A stretch of DNA of 64,000 nt, taken from NCBI GenBank assembly GCA_002269645.1, contig NIVC01001829.1:62001-126000 (forward strand). Direction: 5' to 3'. The translations under genes were made by a program, and so were the position numbers. The stretch is from Macrostomum lignano. Lineage: Eukaryota. Of this stretch, positions 1-61,079 are shown piece by piece. The notes beneath the pieces were generated by a model. That model was not told the origin of the DNA, made no database searches, and saw only the letters and a list, made by a program, of their open reading frames with translations. Position 1 is the first letter of the stretch. Each line of letters begins with the position of its first letter.

Positions 1-2165
1 TGCTTACATATGCACCACCAACACTGAGTTATGCAACATTGGTGGAACCCCCACCTTTGACAACGGGCGATGGACGGAGGCCCTCGACGTTTCCCTCGTT
101 TCCCATGGCTTGGCTCCTTTAGTCAAGGACTGGGAGGTGTGGGACGAAGAGGAGTCTCTGTCTGACCATCGCTTCGTTCGTTTTCGATTGCAATCCTCTT
201 GCCCCAAGCCTCACATTCTGTGGAAAAGGAACATCCGGAACACTGACTGGACGGCTTTCACGTAGACCCTGAAATGCCAGACAGATCAGCTGACTACCGT
301 CGCTCCAACCACCTGTCAGGAAGTCGATGACCTTGCAGACTTGCTCAGCAAGACCGTCCTGACAGCCCATGAGGCTTCCTGTCCCCTTAAAGCCTACAAA
401 GGCAAAAAATCCGCCCCCTGGTGGCACCCGGCGCTCGGATCCCTCCGGCGCAAGGCAAAGTGCCTCCAGCGGAAAGCTCGCAAGAGCAAGGACCAGCTGA
501 CCTGGCCGCCTATCAAGAAGCGATCCGCGACTTTAAGCGTGAAACCAGGAAAACCAAGTTCGACAAATGGCGCCAATACTGCGCGGAGTTACAAGGCACA
601 CGCCCTACTTCGCGCGTAGTTAAGGCTCTCACCCTCGACAAAATGTCAAAGCTCTCAGTCATTAAAAGACCGGACGGCCGGCTCGCTGAGAACCCTGGGG
701 AATCGCTGGACATTATGCTAACCAGCTCTTTCCCACGTGCCGCACCGCAGCTAGGCCCACCGGACCACCTTGCGGGCGGACAGATCCTGGCTTCGACCAT
801 CATCACTAGAGAAAGGACGGCTCGCGCCGCAAAATCCTTCTCTCCTTTCAAGTCTCCGGGTCCTGACAACACTTATCCTGCCTTCCTTCATGAGGCAGTT
901 GAAAAAGACAGGTATCTCGGCCTCCTCTGCAACCTCTTCAAGGCCAGCATTACCCTCGGGTACGTGCCAAAAGCCTGGCAAGAGGCTACGGTAGTCTTCA
1001 TACCCAAGCCAGGGAAGGGAGACTATCACTGCCAAAGCTTACCGCCCTATCAATCTGACGTCTTTCTTCCTCAAACTGATGTAACGGCTGGTGCTCTGGC
1101 GCCTTCTCCTCGTTGAACTGAGGAACTCCCCGCTCTCCCCTAATCAGCACGCCTTTCGTCCTGGACGTTCCATCGAAAGTGCGCTGCACGCCATTGTCGA
1201 AAAGCTGGAGCGCGCCGTGCTTGGCAGTGGATACGCGCTATTGCTTTTCCTCGACATTGATGGTGCTTTCAATAATGTGCTCTTTGAAGCCTTTAAGCGG
1301 GCCCTGGAATCCCGGGGCACGCACGAGCACCTCACCTGCTGGATCATGTAACATGGTCTCCCATCGTACTGCCACCTCGCACCTCCTCGGACACTCATAC
1401 TCCGTGAAAGTCCAGAAAGGCGGACCGCAAGGTGGAGTCCTCAGCCCGATCCTCTGGAATTTAGTCATGGACGAGCTGCTTTGCAGCCCGCATCCGGACC
1501 CAGTTCAGAAGGTCGGCTATGCGGATGATGTTACCGCCACTGTGGCTGGACCATCACCCGCGGTCCTCAGGGACCTCCTTCAAGCCTTTATCCACCGTGC
1601 CAAGCGCTGGGCACATAGCTGCGGTCTCAGGTTCTCTGAGTCTGAAACCGTGGCTATCATGTTCACCAGCCGCCGAAACTGGAGGATCGAACCGCTCTCC
1701 CTCTATGGCAAACCCGTTGCCATGGAGAAACAAACCAGATGTCTGGGTGTCACCCTTGACTACAGGTTGAGTTGGACCCCGCACGTCCAAACCAAAGCTT
1801 GCAAAGCTCTCGCGACTCTCGCGCAGATACGGAGATTTCGGTGCTACCTGGGGCCTCACCCCCCGCCGCCTCTGGTGGATCTACACTGCCATTGTTAGAC
1901 CGGCCATCTCCTTCGCCGGCTTCATTTGGAACAGTGCCCTAGATATGAAAGGGGTTCTTGAGGCTCTAAATAGGGTACAAGGCCGCGCTTGTCGAGCTAT
2001 CATGAGCGCGGCTCCCTCTACGCCCTTCGCTGGCATGAACCTCTTTCCTGGACATTCCCCCCCTCGACCTTTATGTCAGAGGGCAGGCAATGAAGACCAC
2101 CCGCCGTCTGCTTGACGCGGGTGTCCAAATCCAGAAGCAGTTTGCCTTCAGAAAGCGGAACCTTT
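1..2165 (+). mobile_element. Non-LTR retrotransposon (APE-RT; I group, LOA/Lian- or R1-like), frameshifted and truncated at both ends
   Basis: Endonuclease end (EESLSDHRFVRF at about 150-185), then RT motifs across frames: KSPGPD, WQEATVVFIPKPGK, AFRPGRS, LFLDIDGAFNNV, GGPQGGVLSPILWN, GYADD; post-RT DIPPLDLYV at about 2050-2075. Clade call is by motif style only. Confidence 0.9.
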
Positions 2166-2199
2166 CTGCGGAACCAGTTTGCCAATTTTGTAAAAAATT

Positions 2200-5100
2200 T
2201 ATGCGATGCCGACCCATTTGTTACGGCACATATATCCCGATGCAGTGTCGCCTGTTAGATACCGGTAGCAGACGGAATCTAATTGGCAGCGATACTTGGT
2301 CTGCGATTAAGGCGCAGCACCCAAATTGCGTAGTTTCACCTATTTATTCCGATGCGATCCAAATGAATGATGGATCTACACTAGCGCTGCTAGGGAAAGT
2401 TTTTATTCCGATTGAGTTTGGCGACTTTAGCGCTGAAACTGAATTTTACATTGCTAAAGGCGCCCATGAAAATATTTTGGGGATTAACTTTATGAGAGAA
2501 AACTGCCTTGAGCTAAATTTTCAGCAAGGTATGTTGACTTTCAAATCGTTAACCCGTGTGCCAGTGAGATTTACTAGACGCGAAGCTGCAGCCAGTAGGT
2601 TGTATACAGCCGACAGGTATACAATTCCACCGCGCAGCACACGCGTAGTTGAAGTGAAGGTGGCGAAAGGGCGCCAAGATTTGAATGGCACGCCCCTGAT
2701 TTTCGAGCCACTGAAATCCGGTAATAGAGTAGGCAGCCTTACTTATACTATGGCGCCAGCACTCTTAACCGTGAATGAAGGCCACAGCTATTTAGAAATA
2801 ATCAATAATAGTTCGGCTGAAATTACAATTAGAAATAATGTACTGCTTGGAGTAGCTAGTCCGCTTAAGTGGCAGGACTTAGCTTACTTCGAAGAGCCAT
2901 CAGAGGCGCGAGTCAGACACTTGCAGCCGGATGATGCTCAAGCAGCAAAGAAGAGCTGGATAGATCAGATAGAAATTAGTGACCAGCTTTCAACAGATCA
3001 GAAGAAATTAGCTAGAGAACTGCTGCTCCAAAAGAGCGCAGCTTTCGCCAAAGACGAGCTAGACCATGGGCTCACGCATCTAGTGACTCATGAGATGATC
3101 ATGACTGATAACACTCCAGTCAGAATTCCGCCGCGCAGAGTGCCGCCGCACTTGCAGGAAAAGCTCGATGGCGTAATAGATGAGATGTTGGCAAAGAACA
3201 TCATCAGGCCAGCATACTCCAGTTACAACTCGCCAGTGCTGTTAGTACCTAAAAAGGATGGAACAGTTAGATTAGTGTTAGATTATCGCGAGTTGAATAA
3301 AAAATGTTTAAGGCACGTCTATCCTCTGCCTAACATTCAAGATACCTTTGCTTGCTTAAAGGGCTCGAATTTCTATTCTTGCCTAGACTTAGCGCAAGGT
3401 TTCTTTCAAATACCGCTTAGAAGATCAGCATAGAACAGCCTTTTCAATTATTAATCGTGGCCAATTTTGTTTTAATGTGTTACCAATGGGCTTGACTGAT
3501 TCGCCCGGCTCATTCCAAAGGACCATTAATTTGCTCCTAGAGGGATTGAAGCCCCATATTGCGCTCGGGTATATGGATGACATTCTAGTTCATTCAGTAA
3601 CCTTTGAGCAGCATCTTGCGCACTTAGAAACAGTGCTGCAGCGCGTAATTGACGCAAAACTGAAGCTGAAGGCGAAGAAATGTTCGCTGTTCTCAGCTGA
3701 GTTGGCTTACTTAGGACATAAGCTAACTCCTGAACGTGTCAAGACGGATGAGGCGAAGCTCGCCACAATCCGCGATTGGCCAGTGCCGCGCACAGCCTCG
3801 CAGTTGCGCAGTTTTCTAGGCCTGGCCCAGTACTATAAGAAGTACATTAAGGACTATTCTAGTATAGCATCGCCATTGCACGCTTTAACGCGCAAAACTA
3901 TCACTAGCCTGTCAAAATTATGGACTGATGAGCATCAACAAGCTTTTCAGGCCCTGAAAGACAAATTATGTTCTTCAGAAGTTTTAGCTTATCCTGAATT
4001 TACCAGTGATCCTAAGGTGTCATTCATCTTGGACACAGATGCTAGTGATATTGGAATTGGCGCATGCTTAGGCCAGATTCAGTCTGATGGCGAAGAGCAT
4101 CCTATTGCTTACTTCAGCCGCAAGTTGTCAGCTGCAGAAATGCGCTACACGACAACTAAGAAAGAGTTGTTAGCGATTGTCGATTCTCTCCGACATTTCC
4201 GCTACTATCTACTAGGGAAGAAGTTCAAGATTAGGACAGACCATTCCGCGCTTTGCTGGCTACTTCGCCAAACTGAAGCCACCGGAATTCTAGGTCGTTG
4301 GGTGCAGAGGTTGAGTGAGTTTGATTTCGAGTTGTCCCATAGAGCTGGGAAACTGCACGTCAACGCTGACACGTTGTCCAGGAAGCCGGAGACCCCGGCC
4401 CAATGTTCAACTAGCGCCTTGAATAACCCATGCGAGATACGGGAGGCAACTGTCTCAGGCCCCCGACTGACCGCATTGCTGGAGGAGAGTGCGCCAGCGA
4501 AAGATGCTGCTGTAAAGCGCATCAAAAGTGCCTGCAAGAAATCAGACTGGGAAAGAAGCGAGGAGGCCACTGTGAATTCAGCCCACCCGCCGGAAATCCC
4601 TCAACACTCAGGATGTGATGAAGGCGCATTGAGGCCCGACTGCTCTCCCATGAGCCCGCCTAATGCAACCGATAGTCTAACTAAGACTCCATGGCTCGAT
4701 TGCTTTCCCATAAGCCTGCCAGGTGTCGCCAAACCAAGTGCGCAGAACTCGAATTGCTCCCCGCTGAGCCGTTCTGCTGCAATGCCGACTATCTCGAAGG
4801 TCAAATCGAAGCGATCACTGACCCTGATGTCGAGCAATCCTGCTGAGATGGGCACTGAAGCGTCGATACGATGCGGATTCCAATCCCGCCTTCGACATGC
4901 CAATCAGCAGTGGATGAAGAATTCTGCCAGAGCCAGAAAGGCGCCTCAGAATTGGCTGCCAGAATCTGAGTGCTCTGATGATGATGATGATGCAACAGGT
5001 TTGGACTGCACGACAGAATCTGAGACCAATCGACAGCCTGATTCGCCCGCTAGAAGCACCGATTACGAGACAGGAGCTGCTTGAAGCGCAGAAGAGAGAC

Positions 5101-6882
5101 CCTGTGCTCGCGAAAATCGCTGAGTTGAAGGCGCAGAGTGCGCCCAAACCGTCTTTTGACGAGAGACTAAGCATGAGCAAGGAAATGAGAAACCTGCTCG
5201 GGTACTATGAGACCCTATGCTTAGATAATGATGGCATTCTAATGATAGATTTCGATGATAATCGACCCATTAGATTTGTCTTGCCAAAGGAGTTAGACGC
5301 TGCAGTAATGCGCGCACTGCATGACTCCCCGCTAAGCGGCCATTTGGGCCAGAAAAAGACTCTGCAGAGAGTCCAGCAGTTATTCTGGAGACCCGGAATT
5401 CACACTGTGGTCGATCGTTATATCGCCCAGTGTAGAGCTTGCTTAGAGAGCAAAGTCAGGCGCAAAGTGCACTTGCCGCCTCAGAAATTCCCGGTCGGAG
5501 ATGTGTTAGACCGCGTACACTTGGATATCATGGGCCCAATCAATCAGCCTAGTGCTGCAGGCCATAGATATGTCCTAACCTTGTGTGACGCGACGTCAAA
5601 GTATCCGTGGGCCTATGCTCTGAGAAATCAGAAGGCCAAGTCAATCATTAAAGTGATTCAGGAACAGTTCATTCCAATTTACGGTGTGCCAGCCCAGTTC
5701 CATTCTGATCAAGGAACCAATTTCACGGGCGCCGCCTTTAAAATTTTTTGCAAATTATATGGGATAAGACACAGTAACTTGTCCATATAATCCTGCATCT
5801 AATGGACTTGTTGAGAACCTGAATCGAAATATTAAGTCTGTGCTGACTTGTCTGTTAGAGACCAAGCACAAAGATTGGGCACACTATCTGCCAGCTTGCT
5901 TAATAGCGCTGCGCACGGCTGTTCACTCAGTGACAGGATACAGCCCGCATTTTCTGATGTTTGGTCGCACGTTCAATTTGCCTATTGAGAACGCATTGCG
6001 CCACTCACATGATTATCAGAATTTGCCAGATTATGTGCGCCAATTTGTAAGTAGACTGAGTGAGGCGACCGCCCTAGCAAAAGAGCGAATTCGTGCTCAG
6101 CAGGATTTGCGCGTAGATCACTGCCGGAAAACCGCAAGTAGATCCGCTGCAGCCAGGACAATTAGTGTTCTTGGCGAATCCAGTGCTAGAGGCCGGTGAA
6201 GCGCCGAAATTCCATAGACCGCGGAAGGCCGTTTATGAGGTGATCGAGCAGAAGGGCGAGCTGGTCTACAAGATCCGTCGCCAAGGCGAGAAGCGCCGTG
6301 CTCGAAAAGAGGTGCTTGTAGTGCACCGGAAGAATCTGCTCCCTGTAACAACTGCCGACTATCTCCCACAGGTCGCAGAAGCACCGCATCCGATGTACCG
6401 ACAGCGTTGTCATCCGGCGCCACAGGCTGCTACCGAAGCGCCAGGCTGCCACGCTGACTCTTGCACCGAGGACTCCGACGAGGACGAAGATGAGAGCATG
6501 GTCGACGTGAATTGGGCGCACCCAGCTGCAGCCGCCGCTGCCCTGTGGTCGACGCGCTCGCCGCCGCCGCTGCGACCACGGAGCTGAAACGGAGAGAGAA
6601 GATTTTGCGCCCATTGAGGTTGCGCAGTTGCCGTCACGCAACCCAAGCCCACGCGAATCTCCTACTCCCGCGCTCCCATCCCCCATCGCACCTGAGCAAC
6701 AACTAAGAGAAATTTCAACTGTAGATAGGCAGGCAACTAGGACTAGGGACGTCGATCTAGTGACACTAAACCGCCCAGAGCGATTGCGCAGGGAACCTGA
6801 TAGGTTACAGGTCAACCCTAGCCGCAAGACATATGCGTCTCGCCTGGCCAGGATACTTAACCGAATATTTCGCCGAAAGTAA
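2200..6882 (+). pseudogene. Disrupted Gypsy pol of element A
   Basis: Split into ORF pieces 2090-3433, 3477-5084, 4978-5790, 5840-6199, 6165-6587, 6628-6882 by stops and frameshifts. Confidence 0.9.
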
Positions 6883-6907
6883 TTGCCTTCCAGCGACGGA
6901 AACGTCA

Positions 6908-7816
6908 ATGGACGAAGCACCTGAAAGAGTGCCGACCAGGCCCAAGCTGCCGAAATGTCCAAAGAAGTCGGAAACCGTCGCCAAGCGGGTCGCTGATTTG
7001 AAGGCCCAAGGGAGATTGACTCTGAAGAGCTCCGTTGTGGTACCCCCTCGGAGCAGGGTGCCAGACTTGACGTTCATGGAAGATCAAATTGATATTTTCG
7101 CCCCTAACTCACCCCTAGACTCAAACAGCCCGCCGCCGCGCCTCAATAGGCTGCTGCCGATAGAGTCTAGTGATAGGGAGGAGCGCCGAACCGATGGTTC
7201 GCGCCTAACGGAACCAAAGGCGCGCCAGCCAGAGGGCAGTTTGGCTAGGCGCCCACCAGAGATAGGCAATGACCTTGAGTCGCGCCCGCCGAATGCCGCC
7301 GGGAAGAACAGACCGCCGCGTCGACGTGGAAAGCGCGGAGGCCGATTTCGCGGCCCTGCCGGGCGGCAGCTGTTTTTACAGTTGCGCCAGGCTGCCGCTG
7401 CGGTCGCGACGTCCACCCCGCGCCACGCTCGCAACGTCCGACCGCCTGAGCCGCGCCCAGAGACAGGTCAGCTGGCTCCGCCGCCGTCGAGCTGTAGCAG
7501 CTCCACGTCCACTGATGACCTGACGGCGTGGGCGAAACAAACACAGGCGCAATCGATTGACAACCTGTTGGTCCTGGCCGGCACACGACGGCACCTATTC
7601 ACCGATCTACTGCCGGACTTACAGGTACAGCTGAGGCAGGAGAGCCTGCAATACCGCCAGTCGCTCTACGAATGGGCCGCCAATCTGGCAGCCCGAGCGC
7701 TGGCTGACCAGAACTTCGACCGCCAGCACGTTGAGTTAGTGGCGCGCCGGTTCGCCGCTCAGCTGGGCCACGCCGACCTGCCACCGACGCTCAAGGCCGT
7801 CCTCCTGCCAATGTAG
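6908..7816 (+). CDS. Extra ORF (ORF3) of element A, 302 aa, Pro/Arg-rich N-part and helical C-part, function unknown
   Basis: ATG 6908 lies 14 nt after an acceptor-like TAATTGCCTTCCAG (ends 6893); intact ORF between pol stop and PPT; no obvious signal peptide or TM segment. Confidence 0.7.
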   Translation: MDEAPERVPTRPKLPKCPKKSETVAKRVADLKAQGRLTLKSSVVVPPRSRVPDLTFMEDQIDIFAPNSPLDSNSPPPRLNRLLPIESSDREERRTDGSRLTEPKARQPEGSLARRPPEIGNDLESRPPNAAGKNRPPRRRGKRGGRFRGPAGRQLFLQLRQAAAAVATSTPRHARNVRPPEPRPETGQLAPPPSSCSSSTSTDDLTAWAKQTQAQSIDNLLVLAGTRRHLFTDLLPDLQVQLRQESLQYRQSLYEWAANLAARALADQNFDRQHVELVARRFAAQLGHADLPPTLKAVLLPM

Positions 7817-8252
7817 TTTAACAGGGCAAACTATGACAAACTCAATTTGGGTGACTCGGTCAAAATCCGCAACTTAACTATTCGTGTGCTGTAGGCCAAT
7901 GTGGCCTTAACTTAGCATTTCTTTATTTTCTTTTAATTTTTTAGGTCAATTTATCGATCCTTCCCCCCTCTCAGCGTTGAGTCGTTTGCATTTCTATGAA
8001 TCAGGCATATCTCTGTTTTTATCATACTTCGTACACCGGTTAACTCATCCGTTATTATGTTATTCCTCGTTCTTAATTATTCTGCGTGCTTGCCAGCCAA
8101 TAAGGTCGCCATTTCTTTAATTCGTTTTTCTATTTTACGCCTATATATCATTGCATGTAACATCTTTATGAATAAAACTGTTGAACTTACCTATTTTTCA
8201 AATAAACGCTGAAGCCGTCAGCTTCTTCCGGCTCATCTTTTAGCTGGAGGAG

Positions 8253-9714
8253 TGATGTGGCCGCAGCCTTCTGCTGCAAGCATAGGGCCGCAGTCACATC
8301 TTAGGCACTGCTGTCCGCTGCTAGTATCTGGAATAGGAATTTTCTGCTGCCTCCATGCACTCTAAGCAGCCTTCCTTGGCGCTCAGAAGTTGCACAATAT
8401 GGCGCAATCTTTAACATAGGAAATTAGGAAGTTTGCCTAGCCTAGGGTTAGTTAGTGGAAGCCGCCAAATTTGGCGCTTGCCTGTACTGTTGGCGCTTGC
8501 CTGTTGCCTGGCCTGCCGCGTACAATCGCTCAGAGTACGCAAGTCTAGTTAGCCGCACTCCTCCCCCGTGCGCTCTCTGGACCCTTCCCCCTTCTGCTCT
8601 CTCGTTCCTCCTGCGTCCGAGCCTCTCCCCATGCGTCATTCTATTTTTAGACTGAGGGTTTTCGCGGACCCCGTGTCCCGAGCTGAACCCTCCCTCACGT
8701 GCAGCCTTGTGCGCACAAGCCCAAATTTTGCATGCTATTGTCACTGGTGGCTTGAGGCGACTGTCGGCGCTTCGTACAAGCTACTCTCCCCCATGTTTAA
8801 TCAATATCTGTTGTGCATCATTATCCGCACTTTTCGGGCTGCAGTCCCATGGTCAAGCCACGGAATGCCCAAACGCTCCACCCTCCGCGTTCTATATTAA
8901 CGAATGCAGGCCCGCTTGTCTGATTTTTCCTCAGAACCGCCTCGTGAGGACTTGTCGAGAGCTTTCTCCAAGTCTAGCGCTCTAGCGACGGTTAACAGCG
9001 AAGCAAAGCTCCTGAGCAGGTCTTGGTAGAGCTATAAGCATCGCTAAGCAGCTGCAAGCTCCTGAGCAGGTCTTGGTAGAGCATTGCAGCGCTCAAGCAG
9101 AAAGCACGCTCCTGAGCAGGTCTTGGTAGAGCATTGCTAGTGCTACAGCTCTGGTTTTCCAGCCTACCCTATTGGCAGGAAATCAGTTGGCTGAAGCCAT
9201 TCTGCTAGTGTCTATTCGCGACACAGGCGCGAATAAGAGTGAGAGTGAGTGTGCAGTCGCAGCTCTCGTGCGCGATTCTAAAGATAGCTGTTAGTTATAG
9301 GCCTAGAGTCTATTGCTGCTTCAGGCGCATAGACCTATTCCTCGCCGCCCATCTGCGCGAGACATAGCTATTAGGTTAGTAGGAGTTAGGGGTCCTCTGA
9401 GAGCTAAACTTAGACACGCTCAAGCGCGGACATTGTCAGTGCCAGGACTGCGCCGCTCAGGCCATTTGCTACCATTGAGTCCTGTCACTTAGACATTGAA
9501 ATATCTGAGACTAGTTGTTCTAGCGTTATTTATTTGCGTGGACCCCAAACAGACCCCTTCATTGCGGATCCTACGGTTCCCACGCTGGTGGCAGCACTAC
9601 CCTTGATCTTAGATTTCTCCCCAGTCTCAACCCCCATAAGTATAACCGCTAAGACTGCCCCGGCCAATAGCAGTCCACCTCGTTCTATCCCGGGCAGTAA
9701 AGCGAGTTATTACA
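8253..9714 (+). repeat. 3' LTR of element A (about 1.46 kb)
   Basis: Starts TGATG right after the PPT; end TTATTACA at 9714 inferred from similarity of 9598-9714 to the LTR end preceding the PBS at 30392. Confidence 0.65.
9008..9140 (+). repeat. Three 25-bp identical repeats at exact 50-bp period inside LTR A
   Basis: GCTCCTGAGCAGGTCTTGGTAGAGC at 9008, 9058, 9108. Confidence 0.95.
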
Positions 9715-12700: not shown

Positions 12701-12731
12701 TTAATTTCAGTGCAACAGTCTGTTAAGTTTA

Positions 12732-14810
12732 ATGGCTTTTCAGTATGTCGAAGGAAGACGAGGCTCCAAGCTTCTTCTCTATAACAGACATTTATACAAA
12801 CGTAATCGGATAACTCCTAACAAACAATATTTCTACTGCAGGACGGCAGCTTGTGGAGCCAAGACAACTCTGGAACGTGGCATCATTAGCACAAATGGTG
12901 TCACACATTCTCACGATCCACCTTCTGCACAAAAGATAGAAGCAATGAAGCTGAAGCATGAGCTTACACAAGCTGTCATGCAAAATCCAGCAAAACGGCT
13001 TCGCATTGTTTTTGATGAAGTGACTTCCAATACTCCAGGCGGAAATTCTGTTGGGTTTCCTGAGGTTGAGTTAACTATGTGGCGTGCCAGGCGGGCAGTG
13101 CAGCCACGAATTCCTCGAACAATTGAAGATGCAATACAGCTGCTGGACTCTGACAACACTCTGAAGTTATGTGGTGTTGATCAGAAGGCTGTGTATCAGG
13201 GCTCTACTCAGCATGGGGAGCATAGCGCCATTTTCTTTGCTTACCCTGACCTCCTTAGTCAGCTGGATTATGCAGACACTGTGTTTGCTGATGGTACTTT
13301 TCGAGTAGTACCAAGACTTTTTTATCAACTGGTCACCCTAGGCGTGACGAAGGAAGGCTATTTCTTCCCTGCATTTTTTTCGCTTCTTAACGGAAAGTCA
13401 AAAGCAGTATATCGTCTTGTATGGGAGAAAGTGAGACTGTTGTGTCCAAACTTTCAGCCTGTGACGCTCATGACCGACTTTGAAGCAGCCCTGAGAGACT
13501 CGTTCCTAGAGTACTACCCCGAGGCCCAGGCTCATGGCTGCTGGTTTCACTTCTGCCACTCTATCCTGGAAAATTTTAAGAAGATGGGCCTCTGGGTAGA
13601 CCTCTGTCATAATCAGGATATAAGAAAATATGCACGATTGGTAATGACCATTCCGCTACTTCCAGCTGAAGATATTCCGGGTGTTCATGCTATGTTGCAA
13701 CTAGTGTCTCACGCGTCACAAACGTTTCACCTGCTACGATGCAGTTGCTGTGCCGCATTCACGGCTATGTGCGCAGCTATTGGATTGAGAAAGTTGGTGC
13801 TACCATCATCTCCGTATACAACTGTCTCGAACGCACCAACGCTAAGGAAGAATCTTATCACAACAGGTGGCGAATGTTCGCTGAGACAGCTCATCCCAAC
13901 ATGTGGGATTTTATTGGTAATAATTTTATATGTTATAAGTTGCATTCATGGTCAAGAAGAAAACTATTTTAAGTCTGATAAATGCTGACCTTAATTCATC
14001 TTAATCATTCTGAAAAGGGGCTATTTCATTTAAAATGTCAGCTCGTACTCAATATAAATATTACAAATTGAGTCCTGCTGGTGTCTTATGCATGATGAGT
14101 CTACGATTGAAAAATTTGCTATTTTAGTTGGAGATAGTGGAAAGTTTTTTAAACTGATGTTGACACCTTCATTTGTTTCCAATTTTAGTTGCACTGTACT
14201 CCTCGCCGACACGTAGCATCTGCTCCACTTACGTAGCTGATCTGCAAAGACTGAACAACGGCCGACAAATCAGACGGCTGCAGAAAGCCAGAATCATTTT
14301 AAAGGGCAAAAGAATCGCGCAGCAATACGACTTACTTCGAACTGGTCAGCTTCTCCCGATTCAATTTCTTCATGCTGCGGCCAGCAAAGCTGACGAATTC
14401 TTACCCAGTGACGATGATGCTGACCAGGATGCGGATGCGGCCGGCCAGAGCGCTGCCAGTGCTGGAATTGCCGACCATGACGCTGGTGCCGCCGGCCAGA
14501 GGGCTGCCAGTGCTGGAATTGCCGACCATGACGCTGGTGCCGCCGGCCAGAGCGCTGCCAGTGCTGGAATTGCCGACCAGGACGCTGGTGCCGACGGCCA
14601 GACCAGAGCGCTGCCAGTGCTGGACTAACTTTTAAATGCCCTGTTTGCATCAGTGTTCTTGAAAGTGCCAGTTAGCTTATGCTAGTGGTGCCTTGTGGCC
14701 ATACTTTGTGTGCTGCGTGTGTTGCTATCATAAGCGGCATGGACAATTCTTGTCCAGTCTGTCGTGAATCGATTGTAATGTTTGTTAAGCCATACATCAA
14801 CTCTGTGTAG
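12732..14810 (+). pseudogene. Mutator-like (MULE) transposase: FLYWCH + DDE domain + C-terminal RING finger, disrupted
   Basis: FLYWCH-like start (LLLYNRHLY..FYCRTAAC..HSH), FADGTF, LMTDFEAAL, GCWFHF, ERTNAKEESYHN, HPNMWDFI; frameshift near 13735; probable intron 13917-14188; RING CPVC..PCGH..CAAC..CPVC at 14637-14810. Confidence 0.88.
14419..14625 (+). repeat. 51-bp coding tandem repeat (about 4 copies) in the MULE linker
   Basis: Unit GCCGACCATGACGCTGGTGCCGCCGGCCAGAGCGCTGCCAGTGCTGGAATT (ADHDAGAAGQSAASAGI). Confidence 0.9.
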
Positions 14811-17065: not shown

Positions 17066-18545
17066 TGTGAGAGAACAAGTGCAGCATCAAAATAATAATC
17101 AAAATACTTTAGTAGGTGTACAAGGAGTTATGCCGGTACAATTAAATAACAATAATAATCTAGGGATTAACTTAGAAGCTAGACCAGCGAGAGAGCGTCA
17201 TGCTCCAGATAGATTAACAGTCAGGCCAAATCAGTAAAGTTATGTGCAGAGGATAGCGGAGTTGTTTAACCCATTCAACCTCTTGCAGCTTAAGTCTCAA
17301 TAGTCATGGCCGAAGCCCCTCTTCGCGTGTACCCGCGAAAACGCATTTATGGCCAAGGAAGGAGACAAGAACAGGAAGAGAACGAGCCCCCTCGAATTAG
17401 GGCCGTACAGTTGGCGGAACAAGGACAGTACAAGAAGCCGAAATTGGACCGTCAAGAAGAAGAAAAAGAGAGGCTAGTTATTGATGTGGATCTGGAAAGA
17501 GAAACGGAGAGAAAGGAAGCCGAGTTTAGGGACGAGATGGCTAGGTTCATGGAGGAAGTACGTCAACACGAGGAAGGGGTTAGTCCCATCGACGAGCCGG
17601 AAGAGCCGATTGAGCACCCGCTGGCACCTCAGCCACAAGAAGGTCAGCCAGAGCCGACAGAACAACTGGACTGTAACATAGACTACGGAACGTTTATGAG
17701 GGCCGACACCGAGGCACCGCTTCCAGAGGACCACCTGGTCGAGCCGCCACTAAGCCCTGACCAACAAAAGGCTAAATTTCGCAGGTGCCGGCGCGCTCTG
17801 AAGCGGAAAATATTGCAAACAGGCAAGACCGGCCTCTTCGAGCAGAACCTCCCGGACGCCTGCATTTCATTTCTAAGCACGGCCACCGAGGAGGATTCGA
17901 TTAAGTGTTTCGAAATCGGGTGCAGGTATTGTCTGCAATATGCAGAGAGCAATGCACGCGGACCACCACCGAACTACTTGAGTATCTGGCCGAGCGGTTC
18001 GACCCGAGCCGCAAGATGATTCCTATCAACGGATTACTACCTTTCGACGCAGAACACGAGCAACTTACGTCCAGTACACACCGATTAATAACTCAATTAG
18101 GACAGCCTTTTTACATTTAGCATTTACCATTCTCTTTGATACAAGTAATACGCGCATTAAGAAACTACATTAGTAACCATGAACATTATTATGCTAACTC
18201 TATACTCATACAACCATATTTAGCCAACCATACCATATCCAGCAGCTAGTCAAACAATTTGCTTATAATTAAATATAATGTCAATGTACAAAAGGGTACT
18301 TTGCACATTTGTTTAGCGAGGGGGGAGGTGTAGTAGGGGATTATTTTAGGAACGGGAATTATTGTGGGTTCAAATATGCTTTTTGCCTACTATCAGTAGT
18401 TTCAACCCGGGGAAATAACTAGGGCCGGGGTAAATCGCTAGTTTTGGGGTTTCTCTACAACTACAGAGCAGTTGGGCTCTTGGGAAAGTCCTCGAAAGTC
18501 CTCGAAAATTCACGAAAGGAAGTGAGAAAGTTCTTCTTTTCTAGT
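17066..18545 (+). mobile_element. Gypsy element C 3' remnant: pol tail, extra ORF, PPT, first part of LTR
   Basis: Pol tail RPARERHAPDRLTV (stop about 17237); PPT GAGGGGGGAGG then TGTAG at 18329; LTR interrupted at 18545 by the Mag element. Confidence 0.8.
17306..18120 (+). CDS. Extra ORF (ORF3) of element C, about 270 aa with one probable frameshift near 17960
   Basis: ATG 17 nt after acceptor-like TTTAAC...CCTCTTGCAG (ends 17288); begins MAEAPLRV; continues in the 17905-18120 frame (ELLEYLAERF...). Confidence 0.65.
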
Positions 18546-18757
18546 TGTTTTGTTTGAGGAACGCCAAGTCAATGAATTATGGTAGTTTGAAATTAAGCTA
18601 TATTTTAGCGGCAGCGCGCTCCTAGGGTCTTGTGCTCCTAAATGAAAAGATTCGAAGCTTCGCAAACAAAGGAGAGTACCGTATCGCGTCGCATAAACCA
18701 TAGACTATTTTCGAAGTAAAAGTCTATACTTTGCAGTAGTCATAGCAATACGCAACA
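18546..18757 (-). repeat. 3' LTR of Mag element B
   Basis: Direct repeat of 29223-29434. Confidence 0.97.
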
Positions 18758-21700
18758 CCCCCACCGATGCTTATACAGTGCAGTTCAAAGTTACGCCTCA
18801 AGCAATTCAGTAATAAGTCAATCGTTCCGGAGGTCGCCTGACTCGCGTGCTCCTACGGAACTCGAGCACACCGTGTTCCTTGTGACTAGGCGACTGCATT
18901 GCATGGCGCATTGGACTTGTGGTAGCACTGTCTTGGCACGTAGTTGCATCAGTACCACGAGGGGTGATCCCAGACTGCTTCGAATCATCAATAGGTAGTT
19001 CCTCTGTACGAGCAGTAGCATCGGACTGGTGCACTAGTCGTCCTTCTGCGTCTCGGAAAGTATTTGTACCAACTGTAGACTTCAGCTCAGAGGGGACCCG
19101 TTGCTACTTGTGCTCCACACGCACGAAAACAGGAACTGGCTCTTGAACCGGCCTCGTCCTCTCTGAACAAATGGCTGATAGACGTGTTCGGGGCGACTGC
19201 TGAAACACCAGAAGTGCCGGAATTGATCCATTGCAGTGAGGAGTCGTATTCTGAAACAGGCAGAATCCTGCTAAATGCCTTTCCAGCTCAGAAAGATTGG
19301 CACCAGCGTTTAACTTTCTTAAATAAAACTTCAATTCTTCAATGACTCTCTCCACCTGACCGTTGGACTGATGATGTCCTGGGGGAGTAAGTGTGTGGTC
19401 GATGTAGTTCTCTCGCAGGAAAGTAACGAAATCTTCTGCCACAAAAGTTCCACCATTGTCCGAAACCAGATTTTTCGGCAATCCGGTATACTTGAACGTT
19501 TTTCTCAGCGCACTGATGACAATGGATGCTTTCATTGACGGCACGGACTGTACATCTACCCATTTTGAAAATGCGTCAACCAGGACAAGGAAGCGTTGAC
19601 CTTTGAAAGTAGCGATGTCAACGTGAACTCTCTCGAAGAAACTTTTTGTCTCCAGCCATGACGACAGATTTGCATTGCTTCTTTTCCTAGCATGTAGCTG
19701 GCATTGAACACAACGTTGAACGAATGCATTGATTTGAGCATCTATGTCGGGCCACCAGAAGTACTGTCTGGATAGACGTAGCATCCTCACGATGCCGGGG
19801 TGGTCCTCGTGAAGCATCTGAAGAATTTCGCTTCTCAGGCTAGAGGGTGGGACGATGCGCAGTCCTTTGAAAATCACTCCGTTTTGGAGTGTGTATTCCA
19901 ACTTTTTGCGTGAATATGGCAGCATAGCTGGTGGTGGATAAGCAGGCCAGCCGTCTTGAATGTACTTCTTGAGCATGTCCAACTTGTAATCTTTAGTTCG
20001 CACGATCCTCTGCAGTAGCTGTTCGGGGTTTCCGAAACCCTCCAGTGCATTGATTTCTAGGAGGTTGATCTTCTGATCCGCTGAGTCCGACTGCAATGGA
20101 AGTCTAGACAAAGTGTCTGCAGCGTACATCGTTTCACCCTTGACGTACATCACATTGTAATCGTAAGCTCTTAACTGTAATGCCCATCGCTGAATCCTTG
20201 CTGAAACTCGCTCGGAGACCTTGTTCGGATTAAATATGTACTGAAGCGGTCGGTGATCAGAAATGATGGTAAATTTTCGACCCGCGAGGTACTGATAAAA
20301 GTATCTGGTCCCTTCGACGATCGCTAACGCCTCCCGCTCAATGTTAGCGTAGTTGCTCTCCGCTGGAGTCAGGACTCGGCTGCCTAGCCAGACAACCTGT
20401 CGTTGCATTGGATCATGAGCTAGAACGTACCCGAGGCCATCTTTAGAGGCGTCACAAATCAAGTACAACGGTTTCGTAATGTCGTATGCGGTTATCACAC
20501 CGCCTGCAATAATGCTCTTCAGCTTGTCGAATGCCGCAGACTGCTCTCCATGCCAACTCCAGTGAACTCCTTTCTTCAGCAGCTGATATAACGGTCGTGC
20601 AATCATTGAAAAGTTCTTGCAGAAGACGCCATAGTGTCGGAAGGTGCACAGAGCGCTGCGCAGTTGGTCTTTGTCTTTTGGATATGGTAACCTCTTCCAC
20701 GCCTCCATTCGTGCTGGGTCGGGGTGCATGCCTCCATCGCGCAAAATGAAGCCAAGAAATCGAACTTCTCTACGACATTCTTGAGACTTTCTCTGGTTAA
20801 TCTTGAACCCGCAGTTTGCCAAACGATCCTTGACTTGACGAACCAGCTGCATGTGTTTTTCGGCTGAATCCTCAGGAGTCCCAATAATGATGTCATCCTG
20901 ATATGAGGCTGTAAATGGTACATTCCGAAGAACTTCGTCCATGATTTCCTGAAATATTAGAGGCGCCGCGGAAATCCCGAATTGTAGATACCTGAATGCA
21001 AAGAATCCCATGTGAGTAGAAATGCATGTGAGCTCTTGGCTCTCAGGGGATAGAGCCACCTGTAAGAAGGCCTGTTCTAAGTCTAGGACCGTATAGAATT
21101 TAGCGTTGGGAATCTTAGCCAGGATCTTCTCCATCTTCGGAAACCTGTACTTGTCCACGTCAATAAGACGATTGAGCGTCATAGAGTAGTCGCCACACAG
21201 TCGAATAGGTCTTACTGATCCCTCGGGCTTGACCACACTGTAAATGAAAAGTGGCCGAAAAAGTGGCCGACTGCAATTTATCTACAAGTGGCCAATTGCA
21301 TTTTTTTAATTAAAGCACACAAAGCTTTATTTAATTTTTACATGCTATATATACAGCTTTTCAGCTGCATTTTTGATACTAAAGGGTATACAAAAGCTCC
21401 GAATTGGTAAATTTTAAGGAGCTCATTTGTAGTGGCCGAAAGACATGAAATCTCGTTAAGAGGTTACAATTTCAAATATCCTCAGGATTGCCTAACAAAA
21501 AAAGAAAAATTTATTCTAAAAAAATTATAAAATGTAAAAATTTAATATAGTAATGATGCTAATAATTCACATAAATAATATCCTTTTTATACAGTGCTTA
21601 CAGCTTTTTTGTTATATGGTTTAGAGTTTAAAATTTTGCAAATTGCAATGACCAATCTGCTCATCGACGACTTTAAATTTCCTATTTTTATCTTAATTCA

Positions 21701-21942
21701 GTCTGGCATTGAGTTACATTTGAATATAAATTAGGCCTACATCAACTCTATATACGCCAAGTCCTATTTATTTAGATATTTATAGTCCTAGATATTTGAT
21801 ATTTGTACATAAAGCACATTGCTCATTTACATTGTGTTTTATTTTCATTGTATAAATAAAGCCTCATTACAACATTATGCCACCTGCATTCTACTAGATA
21901 AATCATAGTACTGTAAAGGTATATTTTGCTTTTGTTTTTTTT

Positions 21943-24539
21943 ATGATGTTTCCTAGCAAATGTGGTAAAAATTTTGACCAGCTTCCATCTTTTGTTCAGC
22001 ATGCTAAATACCTTTGTCCAAAACTAGAATCAGTTGGGGTTGGAGAAAATAAATATTATTGTCCAATCCAACATTGTTCAATTTCTGGTAAAACTAAAGC
22101 TGCAATCATTAAACATATTATTCGATTCCACAACAGTCTTACAGAAGGTCCTGAAGGGAGTGTATTTGAACTTAAACCCAAGGAATCTATAACTATAGGT
22201 TTAGAATCATTTCAGACTAATTCATTGGCTTTAATTTCTAGTACTAGTAGTGATACTATATCCTCAATAGATTCTAGGCAGTCTAATGTAAATGATTTTA
22301 ATATGTTTCAAAATGAAATCCCATCCTATTCAAATGATGAAATACCTATAGTAGATGTATCTCGGCCTAATTTAAGTTCTATTAAGAAGACAAAAAGTGC
22401 ATGGGAATTAAGAGAAGATTTAAAAGAAAGTATTGCACAAGATATTGTTCATTTTTTTCTCCGTAGTAGAGATTTTTAAAATTTGCCAAATAGTACTAGC
22501 CAAACATTAGCTTTTGAAGTCAAAGATATCATTGCAAAATTTAGTATAGCATTTAAAGATATAGTCTGTAGCTTTTTGAAGGAAAATAATATATTAGCTC
22601 AACAAATAGAATCTATTGAAAAAATTTTGTATTTAGATACATTTTTCGATACTTGTTTTGATATATTAGTTAGTGAAGCTCGACTTATGGGATATATCAA
22701 AGCCAAGTTTCCATTTGTAGAGCCTATTAAAATCCCAACACGGGATATAGAGAATGACATTATATATGTTCCAATTGGAGAGAGTATTGAAGCAGCATTG
22801 CAAAATAATGATTTAAAAAAATTGGTTTTAGAAAGTGAATTGTCAAGTAAGTCTCCTTTTTTATTAGTCAATATTTTAAAGAATACATTGCTCCTTTAAT
22901 TAAAGATTGTAAAAGAGTTATATATATATCATTATATACAGATGAATTTGAGGTTTGTAATCCTATAGGAAAAGCAAGGTGCAAACACAAAGTTTATGCT
23001 ATTTATTTTAGAATTTTAAATGTGCCATTCGAAATAGCTTCACAAGAAAAAAGTTTCTTTTTAGTTACATTAATAAGATATAAAAGCATTCAAGGAAGAG
23101 ATTCAATGATTAATCTTAATGACCTTTATAGCCCACTCACAGAAGAATTAAATGACTTATATGATTTTGGCATTACTTTGAATTTAACAAATGGTCAACA
23201 AAGTAAAATCCCAGTAATTGCTTGCTTTTGTGTAGGGGATAATCGATCTTTAAATAGTCTTGTTGGCTTAGGTTGTAACTTTTCTTCAGGTTATGTTTGT
23301 CGATTTTGTCTTGCAAAAATGACTGACAACAACTTTTGCCTATGTAAACAAAGTTTAATCAGAGAAGATTGTAATTGGAAAGTAGATGAGAAAGTAGGAA
23401 TCAAACAGATGTGCCCATTAAAAGATGTTGGATATATAACAATGCCATATTTCTTTCCTCCAGACTTTATGCATGACATTCTAGAAGGTATTTCCCATTT
23501 TGTCATATGTCTTGCTTTTAAATTTTTAATGAAAGAAAAGGTATTGGCATTTATTGACATAATTGAAATTTTAAAATGTATGTTTCCATTGTCTTTGCCA
23601 GCCATTCTACCTGCTCATATAGCAAACAATAAATTGCCCTTCTGTGCTACTGATATGATATTGATCATTCATAGAATTCCATTGTATTTTGGGCCTTATA
23701 TATTTGATAGTAGCAATTCATTAAGCAGCAGTATTATGAAGCTTATATTATTGCATTGTGAGCTATTGGCTATTTTACTGTCAACTACAAGTATAGAATA
23801 CAATAGCAACTTACTTGCTTTGTTAATTAGGGAGCATAATGAACTAATTATCAAAGTTTCAAATGGTATATTAGCAAAAAAATGCAAGTTGCATTATCTC
23901 CTCCACTATTCTGATCTTCTTCCTTTTTATAATGGTCTTAGGGTATCATGGTCAATGCGATTTGAGGCTATGCACCAATATTTCAAACGTATTGTTCCTG
24001 CTTTACGTTGTTTCAAGAATGTATGTTTCACTGCTGCATATCGATACCAGTTACAAAAAGCTATTAAATCATTAAATTCAATTGATGTGTCAATATGTAC
24101 TCCTTCTAGCATTAAACAAACATACTTAAAGGACATTATTGATTTGAGTACAATGAAATTAATAGCCAGCTTCTTGCATATAAATTCTATAAGTAGTCTA
24201 CCTTTATATTGCCTAGAGACACTAAGTCTAAAAGTTGCTTCATTAGAGTTTAAAGCCCCAACAGCAACTAAATCTATGATTGTTTTTCATAAGCTACATT
24301 CAGATGGAAATCCAATGTTGTCATACATTTCAAAAATAATTTGTATTAGTGGTAGATGGCTCCTTGTGGCTAGAAAATGCAATGCTGTGTATTTGCCATC
24401 ATATTTTGCATTTCATTGTAAACCATTATCAGAAATGTATATTATTGACCCTACTATGCATTTTCTGCATACTCCAGTATTTGTTGACATAATGGCAGGA
24501 AGACATTATATAGTTCTTTCTTCTTTTCTACCAATGTAA
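21943..24539 (+). pseudogene. EnSpm transposase (one stop at 22480, frameshift near 22900)
   Basis: C2H2-like N-term; YTDEFEVCNPIG, GDNRSLN..VCRFC, PDFMHDILEG, LHYLLHY..WSMRFEAMHQYFK. Confidence 0.9.
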
Positions 24540-25138
24540 TTATCAATGTAAACCTTTTGTATTTGAATAGTTGTCATAGAATATCATAGATATAGAATAT
24601 TCCATCATAGAATAGCAGTCACCAAAGTACTATTTTTTATACTTTGAAGCACCACGTTGAGAAATCCTCGTTTGCATCCCACACTGGTGGCTTTAGCAAC
24701 ACACGCAGATGGAGAGCCCCACTCTGATATCTACCCAATCTGAGGAGCAACCCCAGCAGCTCAAATATCCCTTGCATCGCAATCCAACACGAATGGGGCA
24801 TTGGCTTCACTTTCACCTCCTTCGTTTATCCTTTTTTGGAAAAATTTGCACCTTTGAAGCTGGTTGGACCTCCAGCCGGCCTCTGACTGAGATGACACCC
24901 CTACTTGGTCACTTATAGCATTTGTATCAAGTGGAGAATTAGGCAACTTATTATATAATACACTGCATAGCATTATATGGGTGATGCAATGCCGCTAGAC
25001 GCATTCAATTAGTGTAGCATACAACTCTTTAGGAATGTGAATTATTCATTTAACATGCAACAATTATTAAGACTAACGAGGCTTTTATAACCCCTTTAAA
25101 CACCCACAGCTAATGCTCCAGCAGCTGGAAAGTCTATA

Positions 25139-26842
25139 ATGCCACTCTGCAAACTTGCCACACAAGATAAGAAAAGAAAGGTTTGCCTACAATTTACTAA
25201 TGGAACTTTTACCGAGTTTGTAACTGCTGGCTGCAATGCACTCGGAATTGCGTTGCTTCCGGACTCAGACGACGTAGTTACAGTTTCAACTGAAGGTGAC
25301 TACGAAGTTGCTGATGAGGAAACTTGGAATGCTCTGATGACTGCGTCACCATCGCCAAGTTTTTTGTTTTCCGTCAAGAAATTTACTGCTGCTGGGGCAG
25401 AAGTAATTGATTCTGATGCGACTGCTGTTGCTTAAGTCTCCGCTGCGTCAGCTGCTGCTGAAGTCTCAACTGTGTCTGCTGCTGCTGCTGCTGGAGTGCC
25501 GGCATCAACAATTCAACGGGTTTCGCCAGTTCCTGTTTTTTATAAGTTGCCACAGTTTCCGGCAGATATCATCAACAGGATCCAGTGTGCCGATACGCCC
25601 GAAAAAGTAGCTAAGCTTAAAATAGATGCAAGCTTTGTCAACAGCCTGATTCGTCCTATCGTGAACGATATAACGTGCAAGTATGTTGGTAGTGACAAGC
25701 CTCATTTGTCCAGCAGTGAATTAAAAGTGTTTTCGAGCGCAATTGTCGCCCAGTTTCCTCTCCTAGCGGATTCAAGCTCTGGCGATCACACTTTTTGGCG
25801 CCTGGTGCTTCGCCGTCGAGTAAAATATTGGCGCGAAAAGAATTTTGCAAAAGAGTCTAGTGACAACTTGCCGCCAAAAATCCTGTCTGCGAGGGAGAAG
25901 TTTGGCCGAACTAGTAATACTGCGGAGGCAGCGAAACGACGACGATCAAATTTACCAACTGGATTATTCGAGTCGGATTCAGAAAACAATAGCGAAAGCG
26001 AAGACAAAGAGGTCCAAGACGAAGAGGTTGAAAACGAAGATCAAAGCAGTGAAGGCACTGAAGATGAGTATGACGGTGCTGACGTTCGGGCCAGCGATCT
26101 GGCATCTATGATGGACGAGTCATCGATCTATGTGCGCGATGCCGACAACGTATCTGATCCAATGTTGTCAATGATTCGCGATGGGCAGCTCCTGGTATCC
26201 CTGAAGGAAGCCTCTAATGCTATGCACGCAACTTTCGCTGAACGGGTTCAGGCAGCGCAGCAAATGTCGCTTTCGGAAGAGTTTCTGGCGTACCCTTTGC
26301 TGCTCAATTCGCGCCTGCTCTGTGAAGAGGCCCTTCGTGTCGTAAATGTTTATGCCAGCTCGACAAAATCCGACTATCTGCCGCAAGAAGGCACTGACAT
26401 CACTGCGCTATGCGATCGCCTTCGAACCCTTTTGGTTTGGTTCACCAGAAACGCGGCACTATTTAAAAGATCGTCTCGGGCTAAGCCTTACCTTCAGGCC
26501 ACAGATGAACCTGAATTGATTGCCAGAAATGGATTCATGCTTTTGTCAATTAAAGCAAAGGTGATTAATCCGAACGATTTTTTGGATAGCAGCCGTCTTG
26601 TGAGCATCGTTCAGGATTCCAATCATTGGACGGGAGTCCGCGTGTCGACGAGCATTGTAAAAACTGAGTCGACAATCGAGTGCATTTTTTGCTACATCAT
26701 GGCCTTTCTAGCCCACAATTTGAAGCACGATCGGCGAACGGAAAACGTCAACGAGACTGTCGAATTTTTTCTAAAGCTACGTAATCCAAAGCGGGCTACT
26801 AACCAGTCGATTAAAAGTCTGGTTAGCATCCTGCCGATGTAA
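25139..26842 (+). CDS. Second EnSpm ORF (about 567 aa, one in-frame TAA at 25433), accessory/TnpA-like
   Basis: ORFs 25139-25435 and 25472-26842 are in the same frame; local duplication GCTTAAGTCTC vs GCTGAAGTCTC suggests GAA to TAA; acidic linker and helical C-terminal domain. Confidence 0.7.
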
Positions 26843-29222: not shown

Positions 29223-29434
29223 TGTTTTGTTTGAGGAACGCCAAGTCAATGAATTATGGTAGTTTGAAATTAAGCTATATTTTAGCGGCAGCGCGCTCCT
29301 AGGGTCTTGTGCTCCTAAATGAAAAGATTCGAAGCTTAGCAAACAAAGGAGAGTACCGTATCGCGTCGCATAAACCATAGACTATTTTCGAAGTAAAAGT
29401 TTATACTTTGCAGTAGTCATAGCAATACGCAACA
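29223..29434 (-). repeat. 5' LTR of Mag element B
   Basis: Direct repeat of 18546-18757; PBS abuts it at 29213-29222. Confidence 0.97.
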
Positions 29435-29439
29435 CTAGT

Positions 29440-29764
29440 AAGAAAGGGAAATAAGGGTTAAGATTGCACTAGAGGAGTCTTGCCTCTAATATTGGGAGTC
29501 TTGCCCAACGCACAAAACGGGAATTAAAACTAGGAACTAATGTAAAATAACCTATCGTACGCATTTTTTAGTTAATTTTCCAAAACTGCTAACTATAATC
29601 TTTGGTGTCCTGACTTACTCCTTTAATCTAAAAGTACTAGAATTAGGGAAAGCAGGAAACCTGGTGGCAGCGAACTACCAAAATTTCAAATCAGTACAGC
29701 AGATAATAATCCACTCGTAATCCTTAGCAACTAAGAAAACCAGTAGCTTAGCCGCGAGGTTACA
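29440..29764 (+). repeat. Remainder of the element C LTR (joins 18329-18545; about 540 bp total)
   Basis: Follows the TSD; contains TGGTGGCAGCG at 29662; ends GGTTACA at 29764. Confidence 0.7.
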
Positions 29765-30261: not shown

Positions 30262-30409
30262 GGGTACCCTTAATCTTAGATTTTTCCCCAGTCTCAGTCC
30301 CTATTTACGTACTCGGTAAGGTTGCTTCGGGCATCAGCAGTCCCTATTAACCCCGCCACAGTAGTGAGAGCCAAACCCACGAGCACAACACTGGTAGCAG
30401 CGGTGGGAT
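30262..30409 (+). mobile_element. LTR 3' end plus tRNA-Leu PBS (fragment G), related to LTR A
   Basis: TACCCTTAATCTTAGATTTTTCCCCAGTCTCA matches 9598-9630; ends ACA 30390; PBS TGGTAGCAGCGGTGGGAT 30392-30409. Confidence 0.8.
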
Positions 30410-35783: not shown

Positions 35784-36477
35784 CTGAAATGCAGAATGCA
35801 GTAATAACAAATAGGACTTATTATTTATAAACTTTATAGTTATACAAACGATACACTGCTCTTTTAACTTACAACAGCTTGACTATTATATGAACTACCT
35901 GGCAGATAGAAAAACCCAACAGAATCAACAAATTCTTTTGTACGAAATTTCCAGCTTTAATTTTGCAAATGCACATGCAAGTGGCAACTCAAAATATTAA
36001 ACCTGCCAAAGTTCCAAACAATTTTTTTCTTCTGTTTAACTGCCTTACTTCAAATTACTTTAAACATATAATAAATTATTCTGTTTTAACAAAAAAGCAT
36101 ATAATATTATTGCACCATTAGAATTTTCAGCAATTAAAAGCCAAAAAATCATCTCAAACTTAAATGGTATGCCAAAGTAGTATACAGAAATGGCTCAACT
36201 ATCAATTGGTATACTGGAAATTTCTCACATACAAATAACCTTAAATATGGTAATACAAATTTAATTGCAGAAGAACCTGCATCCAAAGTAATGACCAATG
36301 TTGGCACTAGTATATTAATGAAAATCTTATTAAGTTTTAACATTGTTAAGTTGACTAAAAGTTAACTAATTATTGGTAATGAGCATTAATCCATTAATAT
36401 TAACATGTAAATACTGGAATTTCGTACTTTTTTCCAAAACAGTTCAATAAGCAGATAAAGTCGATAATATCGTGCCT

Positions 36478-61020: not shown

Positions 61021-61079
61021 CCCGACAAGCGAAATCAATTTCTGTCTGAGAAAAATCGGGAAGTTAATTACATTGATAT

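Follow-up and report, generated by a model that had tools for sequence, protein, structure and literature searches.

In Macrostomum lignano, six families of Ty3/Gypsy LTR retrotransposons (A, C, D, E, F, and G) carry a third open reading frame (ORF3) in the env position, and the proteins predicted from it all share a C-terminal helical domain about 100 amino acids long, a relationship that is transitive and runs through family E. The original prediction, made from the DNA analyzed here (64,000 nt of contig NIVC01001829.1, assembly GCA_002269645.1, hereafter the window), had proposed a soluble, non-Env accessory gene, and this description has held up: ORF3 is conserved, lacks membrane features, gives dN/dS values indicative of purifying selection, and occurs in one Gypsy lineage. 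Our reading of its function is tentative. As a conserved soluble accessory gene, ORF3 would likely be expressed from a short mRNA of its own and would likely encode a nuclear adaptor that sustains expression of the element through contact with a host protein, a role that, read from sequence, is likely to consist of counter-silencing or trans-activation.

Carrier elements and their relationships

The window contains copies of elements A, C, and D, with the following features:

391-1898: non-LTR retrotransposon fragments, substituting for the 5′ part of element A
2039-6882, + strand: pol of A (PR-RT-RH-IN), several broken frames in the window copy; pol stop at 6880-6882
6856-6893, + strand: branch-point-like CTTAAC (6856-6861) and predicted acceptor TTCCAG (6888-6893) of A, straddling the pol stop
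6908-7816, + strand: ORF3 of A, 302 aa, intact, open from ATG to stop
7514-7813, + strand: conserved, predicted helical domain of A ORF3, about aa 203-302
7817-8245, + strand: 3′ UTR of A, about 430 nt, T-rich; AATAAA at 8171 and 8201; structure not above that of shuffled sequences
8246-8252, + strand: polypurine tract (PPT) of A
8253-9681, + strand: 3′ LTR of A, 95% identical to the 1528-nt LTR of copy L087/L088 and about 100 nt short
17074-17299, + strand: pol tail of C with TTTAAC and predicted acceptor TTGCAG (end at 17288)
17306-18019, + strand: ORF3 of C, 237 aa in the window, its C-end region broken in this copy
18268-18328, + strand: ATTAAA of C (18268-18273; AATAAA in relatives), then PPT (18318-18328)
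18329-18530, + strand: first part of the 3′ LTR of C, split by a nested Gypsy element and continuing at 29438-29747
36300-37422, + strand: pol tail of D (integrase C-part)
37628-37879, + strand: promoter-like region of D, with two TAGCAAC, CCAAT at 37661, and TATAAA at 37786
37880-38897, + strand: ORF3 of D, ATG at 37880, one in-frame stop at 38630-38632, the frame then open to 38897
38898-39345, + strand: 3′ UTR and PPT of D, no AATAAA; LTR next

The common layout that had been claimed for the three elements (pol tail, ORF3, UTR, PPT, LTR) is present in each, with the correction that the window ORF3s of C and D are broken and that of C reaches only 237 aa. Intact relatives are mostly 271-285 aa long in the C family; those in the D family measure 291-347 aa. 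Pfam matches to RT, RNase H, and integrase lie in pol just 5′ of the ORF at 6908, and the carrier is a Ty3/Gypsy LTR retrotransposon by Pfam domains, LTR pairs, and 4-nt target-site duplications. Genome searches with ORF3 gave 32 matches for A, 100 for C, and 64 for D, and domain queries gave at least 150 for D and 91 for G, all of these being matches and not copy numbers; a search with integrase yielded the three additional families E, F, and G. In natural full copies, the two LTRs are 97-99.9% identical and the target duplications measure 4 nt, indicating that some families are young.

Among named RTs, the closest is one of M. lignano (97%). In a quick, raw RT-RNase H tree, 17 copies from the six families separated from 20 database Pols with an SH-aLRT of 100, and in a quick tree of A, C, and D these three grouped with an SH-aLRT of 99, the comparison Pols in the RT trees being top matches of the C query and not classified references. 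By these trees the six families form a single RT clade within Gypsy, and element A, for which an RT phylogeny had been suggested as a check, falls in it with C, D, E, F, and G. The Ty3/Mdg4 elements of M. lignano have been assigned to the clusters Mag, CsRN1, Gmr1/Osvaldo (40 families), and Mdg3/Micropia (PMC12801592, accessible portion), and the clade probably lies inside a cluster already listed there; that the lineage is an undescribed Gypsy group, as had been suggested, is doubtful. Neither “ORF” nor “splic” occurs in the main text of that paper (PMC12801592). The literature searched contained no description of the protein family.

Several derivative arrangements were seen among the copies. 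Nine D-type elements lack pol (L101, L103, L108, L112, L113, L122, L140, L142, and L143); they comprise a short ORF resembling gag, filler without coding capacity, the promoter region, and an intact ORF3, their LTR pairs are 99-100% identical where both LTRs were seen, and their ORF3 alleles are found in autonomous copies too. In L055 and L114, a truncated A-type gag-pol stands directly 5′ of a C-type ORF3, either by rearrangement or as a cross-family chimera. L170, L172, and L181 share the same unrelated upstream sequence followed by about 190 nt of pol tail and a C ORF3, which may point to duplication of a segment or to a derivative in its own right, and L107, L134, and L161 are tandem head-to-tail elements with a shared LTR. 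The primer of the elements may be tRNA-Leu; a tRNA search of six loci detected none.

The A LTR contains an 18-nt motif three times at a spacing of about 50 nt (window 9008-9140; twice in the L087 copy), and a 79-nt stretch of it (9598-9676) is repeated at 30265-30343 with 75% identity, perhaps as part of a related LTR. The element nested in the C LTR (18531-29435) is a distant Gypsy on the minus strand, its RT 30-35% identical to those of A, C, and D; it holds a Tnp2-like transposase at 22851-24539 and also a 468-aa ORF without a Pfam match at 25436-26842.

The ORF3 protein, its selection, and its alleles

The claim that ORF3 lacks the signal peptide and TM anchor of Env is confirmed: the maximum 19-aa hydropathy was 0.45-1.05 in 13 of 13 ORFs, which leaves no TM segment and no signal peptide. 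The same 13 ORFs each have 0-2 N-glycosylation motifs, and all carry basic clusters. Searches for the hallmarks of Env found no signal peptide, no C-terminal TM anchor, and no F-type or gB-type ectodomain homology by Pfam; the TM segment of sORF2/FAST-like fusogens was missing from the 13 ORFs, and no GDSL, DEDDy, or chromodomain match was found in ORF3s by Pfam. In A, a Pro/Arg-rich low-complexity N-terminal part is followed by an Arg cluster and the helical domain at the C-terminus. D ORF3 has an acidic amphipathic stretch near its N-terminus.

When the whole ORF3s of A, C, and D were compared as profiles, no alignment was significant. With profiles of the C-terminal domain and more members, C and D aligned by hhalign (E 0.0012, 83 columns), while the direct A-C alignment was not significant (E 0.23-0.24) and A-D gave no significant alignment. 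When HMM mean scores were compared with those of 200 shuffled sets, none of the sets scored higher, in both directions, for A-E, A-F, A-G, E-F, E-G, F-G, E-C, and C-D; A-C was borderline (5/200) and A-D not significant. Because A-C and A-D are not directly significant while A-E, E-C, and C-D are, the family is linked transitively. Only one residue, the proline of the LP site, is near-invariant across the ORF3 domains. Of the LF..LPD motif thought to be shared by A and C, the LP is homologous and the rest is not; the homologous site in D reads LPQ and is not its terminal LPD. The reported similarity of N-termini is real within limits: EAP.R occurs in the window copy of A, in C, and internally in D, and neither other A alleles nor E have it. 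As to the helical character of the C-terminal part, the C-family domain was modeled with confidence as five helices (pLDDT 89, pTM 0.81), the predicted helices of A and C are in register with the sequence alignment, the A ORF3 model itself being poor (pLDDT 53), and A-C homology is supported as distant.

Searches for relatives gave little. No ORF3 matched Pfam at the curated cut-off in four runs (16, 11, 20, and 28 proteins), PDB sequences gave no match below E 0.009, and Foldseek against PDB and viral structures gave none at E 0.001. A fold search with the A model returned generic hairpins only, from a low-confidence model, and was discarded. In the ESM Atlas there was no usable match for D and only scores <0.9 for C; an exact look-up found 0 of 10 ORF3s in the sequence collection, and the family HMMs matched none of 120 database Pols. 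Word-index searches that used domain alignments of C and D as queries and were restricted to long proteins found none among 7999 and 8000 candidates, which is weak evidence; the 8000-candidate search overlooked host proteins that a HMMER scan later found. That full scan, run with the D profile only, produced nine matches, namely five from M. lignano, one without a name, and three weak and repeat-like; eight of the nine were looked up, and every named match was an M. lignano protein annotated as hypothetical. In the searches run there was hence no Env, Pfam, PDB, or non-host relative of ORF3, and the Pfam, PDB, and Foldseek searches contained no clear match to a known Env or accessory ORF, in keeping with the original prediction.

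Whole-ORF dN/dS (Nei-Gojobori) was 0.07-0.58 in every computable pair among 70, saturated pairs having no value, and dN/dS of the C-terminal domain was 0.05-0.37 between diverged alleles; these values are rough because dS was often saturated. The dN/dS check that had been suggested thus came out below 1 in all computable pairs, and the ORF is conserved, with intact copies abundant elsewhere in the genome. The values indicate that selection on ORF3 is purifying, and, with dS saturated, they gave no sign of positive selection.

Identity between copies drops sharply over ORF3. In the comparison of the window copy of A with L087/L088, the 23 pol bins were 89-99% identical, the 7 ORF3/UTR bins (acceptor to PPT) 52-75%, and the 7 LTR bins 94-99%. 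A comparable dip over ORF3 and the UTR was found in pairs from C, E, and G; one D pair showed a slight dip only, and another D pair diverged in the LTR as well. Within families, amino acid identity of the integrase vs. the ORF3 domain was 83-99% vs. 36-68% in C, 97-99% vs. 55-71% in E, 84-99% vs. 30-65% in G, and 69-97% vs. 21-50% in D. By these comparisons, ORF3 and the 3′ UTR form a cassette of old diverged alleles (52-75% nucleotide identity) on backbones that are 94-100% identical, and synonymous saturation implies that the alleles long predate the backbones bearing them. Recombinants within ORF3 also exist (L043; L155/L157), and we infer that exchange occurs by recombination between co-packaged RNAs. 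Two C subfamilies are mosaic along the whole element (C1021 vs. C712, 55-96%), and as mosaic evolution thus extends beyond ORF3 in C elements, the high diversity of ORF3 is not necessarily a sign of host conflict.

Gene layouts and expression signals

All 34 distinct junctions compared (families A, C, E, F, and G) have a YTNCAG sequence 7-30 nt 5′ of an ATG and 3′ of a conserved peptide of the pol tail, where 0.08 would be expected by chance per 25-nt window; as the five families are related, the 34 junctions are not independent draws. Its position falls in different pol frames, and in A it is 3′ of the pol stop. In the window, the acceptor of A (TTCCAG) ends at 6893, 14 nt 5′ of the ATG at 6908, and that of C ends at 17288, 17 nt 5′ of the ATG at 17306, spacings that agree with those originally given; the 34 junctions now identify the predicted acceptor as a conserved nucleotide signal. 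D lacks a YTNCAG acceptor, and there is no contradiction in this, the claim having been made for A and C only. In M. lignano, YTNCAG is the top motif of spliced-leader (SL) trans-splice acceptors, and 30% of genes are trans-spliced (PMC8629364, accessible portion). The motif suits both modes, and SL trans-splicing and cis-splicing are equally plausible at the predicted acceptor.

No donor was conserved across element leaders, in some rows of which the PBS was mis-called. Among the pieces listed (contigs from six runs guessed to be RNA and one unlabelled run) there was no joint to the acceptor, which has no bearing on expression; two contigs from the presumed RNA runs read straight through the C acceptor without splicing, as expected of genomic RNA or DNA. 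Spliced retro-copies were absent from 60 A/C loci and 20 further C copies, and an SL end motif from every locus examined.

At the other end of the gene, 30 of the 41 rows scored from A, C, E, and G have an AATAAA 42-57 nt 5′ of the called PPT, and none of the 24 D rows does; the expectation over all 65 rows is 1.4, and the counts include likely mis-called ends in 6 C, 1 A, and 6 D rows. An mRNA with ORF3 as terminal exon and without PPT and LTR would explain the absence of spliced retro-copies. Of 17 D copies, 12 have a TATA box between -72 and -106, frequently accompanied by CCAAT. The D loci and the window (37628-37780) also have a pair of TAGCAAC and a conserved GGTCCAGTTTT motif 5′ of the TATA box, and we take the TAGCAAC pair to resemble RFX half-sites.

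In F and G, ORF3 is in frame with Pol, and the acceptor and ATG are still present. In the G copy L148, a single open frame of 2102 aa with RT and IN continues into the ORF3 domain, and in L152 and L156 (G) as well as L162 (F) the frame stays open between IN and the domain. Stop read-through as a general route was rejected because pol and ORF3 occupy different frames in A and in most C and E copies. Three gene layouts are present: acceptor-type in A, C, and E, Pol-fused plus acceptor in F and G, and TATA-type in D. Cassette exchange, Pol-fused forms, and a poly(A) signal before the PPT are all additions to the original prediction.

Candidate roles and known systems

In the tentative mechanism that we prefer, ORF3 of the acceptor-type families would be a terminal exon, either cis-spliced or joined to a spliced leader, and its mRNA would be polyadenylated just 5′ of the PPT; without PPT and LTR, this mRNA could not be copied back. 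Basic clusters would bring the protein into the nucleus, where the five-helix bundle would bind a host partner. Pressure from the host would keep several old ORF3 alleles circulating, and these would pass from one backbone to another through template switches in conserved sequence, namely the pol tail and LTR. A helical domain that diverges fast and is yet constrained, a long low-complexity arm, basic clusters, and retention in pol-less D elements fit a host-facing nuclear adaptor, although the pol-less elements are young, and an intact ORF3 there may reflect youth only.

An RNA switch comparable to CERV or Rev, in which the protein binds RNA of the element so that full-length genomic RNA escapes the acceptor and the early poly(A) site and leaves the nucleus, is credible but unlikely. 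Genomic RNA does have to skip the acceptor and the AATAAA before the PPT, ORF3s carry Arg-rich clusters, and there is a precedent. As described in the accessible portions of the cited papers, on which all comparisons below also rest, CERV of the C. elegans element Cer1 is a nuclear, spliced, non-Env protein encoded in the env position and required for genomic RNA export (PMC10309623), and CERV mRNA was found with and without SL1 (PMC3315495). Like ORF3, CERV is a lineage-restricted non-Env ORF in the env position of a Gypsy carrier, in a host with SL trans-splicing, and its subgenomic mRNA is spliced, where ORF3 has a predicted acceptor. Unlike ORF3, CERV is a Gag-exon fusion with an M domain and a G domain of Rossmann type, while ORF3 has its own ATG 7-30 nt past the acceptor and one predicted all-helical domain, a difference from the Rossmann-type G domain that also counts against a shared mechanism. 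Moreover, the D domain is kept under selection without an acceptor or early AATAAA, and the ten UTRs folded did not exceed shuffled sequences in structure (z -1.7 to +3.5), which argues against an RRE-like element in the cassette. The allele cassette, Pol fusion, and putative internal promoter found here are not among the CERV features described (PMC10309623; PMC3315495). CERV function has been demonstrated, and the role of ORF3 is inferred from sequence.

A more elaborate version of the counter-defence mechanism, which we regard as rather improbable, would make the element a two-gene operon from which the SL machinery excises a non-replicable ORF3 mRNA; the product would be a counter-defence protein of new fold, with ancient alleles held under balancing selection and shuffled between backbones, and the gene would have moved between spliced, Pol-fused, and promoter-driven states. 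It is improbable, too, that the domain is an integrase cofactor or tether, acting on Pol (fused in F and G, in trans elsewhere) to steer integration as chromodomains do in chromoviruses. The frames of L148, L152, L156, and L162, open from IN into the domain, are what such a cofactor would call for. However, the fused families retain the acceptor with an ATG 7 nt behind it, so that fusion may be incidental; alleles only 30-60% identical pair with integrases 96-99% identical; and ORF3 is retained in elements that have no pol.

We give little credence to an element-versus-element factor, in which every allele would define a type able to restrict or exclude the remaining copies, as copy-number control or incompatibility, with frequency-dependent selection keeping the diversity. 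Deep balanced alleles on near-identical backbones, the recombinants inside ORF3 (L043, L155/L157), and retention of ORF3 by pol-less parasites would all suit it, but ORF3 has no toxin, antidote, or Gag-like feature and the cassette has no second ORF. It is very unlikely that the domain mimics a cullin repeat to divert the adaptor of a host ubiquitin ligase: the top four VIA-align rows for the C-family model are indeed cullin N-terminal repeats (Z 6.2-6.4, rmsd 4.2-4.9, 105-111 aligned), but these Z values tie with unrelated helical rows at the helical-bundle background, identity is 5-8%, and Foldseek gave nothing below E 0.9 for this model. The chance of a decayed Env or membrane fusogen is negligible: the 13 ORFs all lack a signal peptide and a TM segment and have at most two N-glycosylation motifs each, Pfam gave no match at the curated cut-off, and selection is purifying.

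Other known systems share single traits with ORF3. In Oikopleura Tor elements, the third ORF is spliced in some families and driven by an internal promoter in others, paralleling the layouts here, but it encodes a transmembrane Env glycoprotein (PMC4402516). Bdelloid rotifer LTR elements likewise have non-Env third ORFs, and the non-autonomous TelKA2n kept ORF3 and lost most of pol, like pol-less D; the rotifer ORF3s are captured GDSL esterases, DEDDy exonucleases, and TM or coiled-coil proteins, none of which the present domain matches (PMC5408684). Errantivirus Env and Gypsy/mdg1 sORF2 are also extra Gypsy ORFs under purifying selection; in contrast to the ORF3s here, which are hydrophilic throughout, they are membrane proteins for cell-to-cell spread (PMC13524379; PMC13486581). 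Non-Env third ORFs (CERV, rotifer) and the expression of Tor env by splicing or from an internal promoter were therefore already known.

Two element-encoded nuclear helpers offer functional parallels: VANC is the anti-silencing protein of VANDAL transposons, and Tas of foamy viruses is expressed from a 3′ internal promoter. The Tas promoter resembles the D layout, and the likeness to VANC and Tas is a functional analogy only.

Extra ORFs of LTR retrotransposons are mostly unexplained one-offs, whereas here one new domain can be traced through six families, with three predicted expression layouts and sharp-bordered allele exchange, in a host that permits transgenesis and RNAi. The system makes it possible to ask directly whether host-facing proteins for counter-defence or RNA switching are encoded by LTR elements of animals, and whether SL trans-splicing serves such elements in expressing a downstream gene.

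Elsewhere in the window, a FLYWCH plus MULE transposase, broken on its C-end side, lies at 12705-13988, and an RCC1-repeat gene forms one long ORF among transposons at 34731-35882 on the minus strand. Tandem arrays at 45144-49465, with units of 21, 25, 20, and 42/45 nt, give rise to spurious long ORFs. Beyond them are three ENaC/degenerin-like channel genes in tandem (50775-52502, 56080-57810, and 61077-61691), two of them single long ORFs, and an inverted fragment at 63625-63754.
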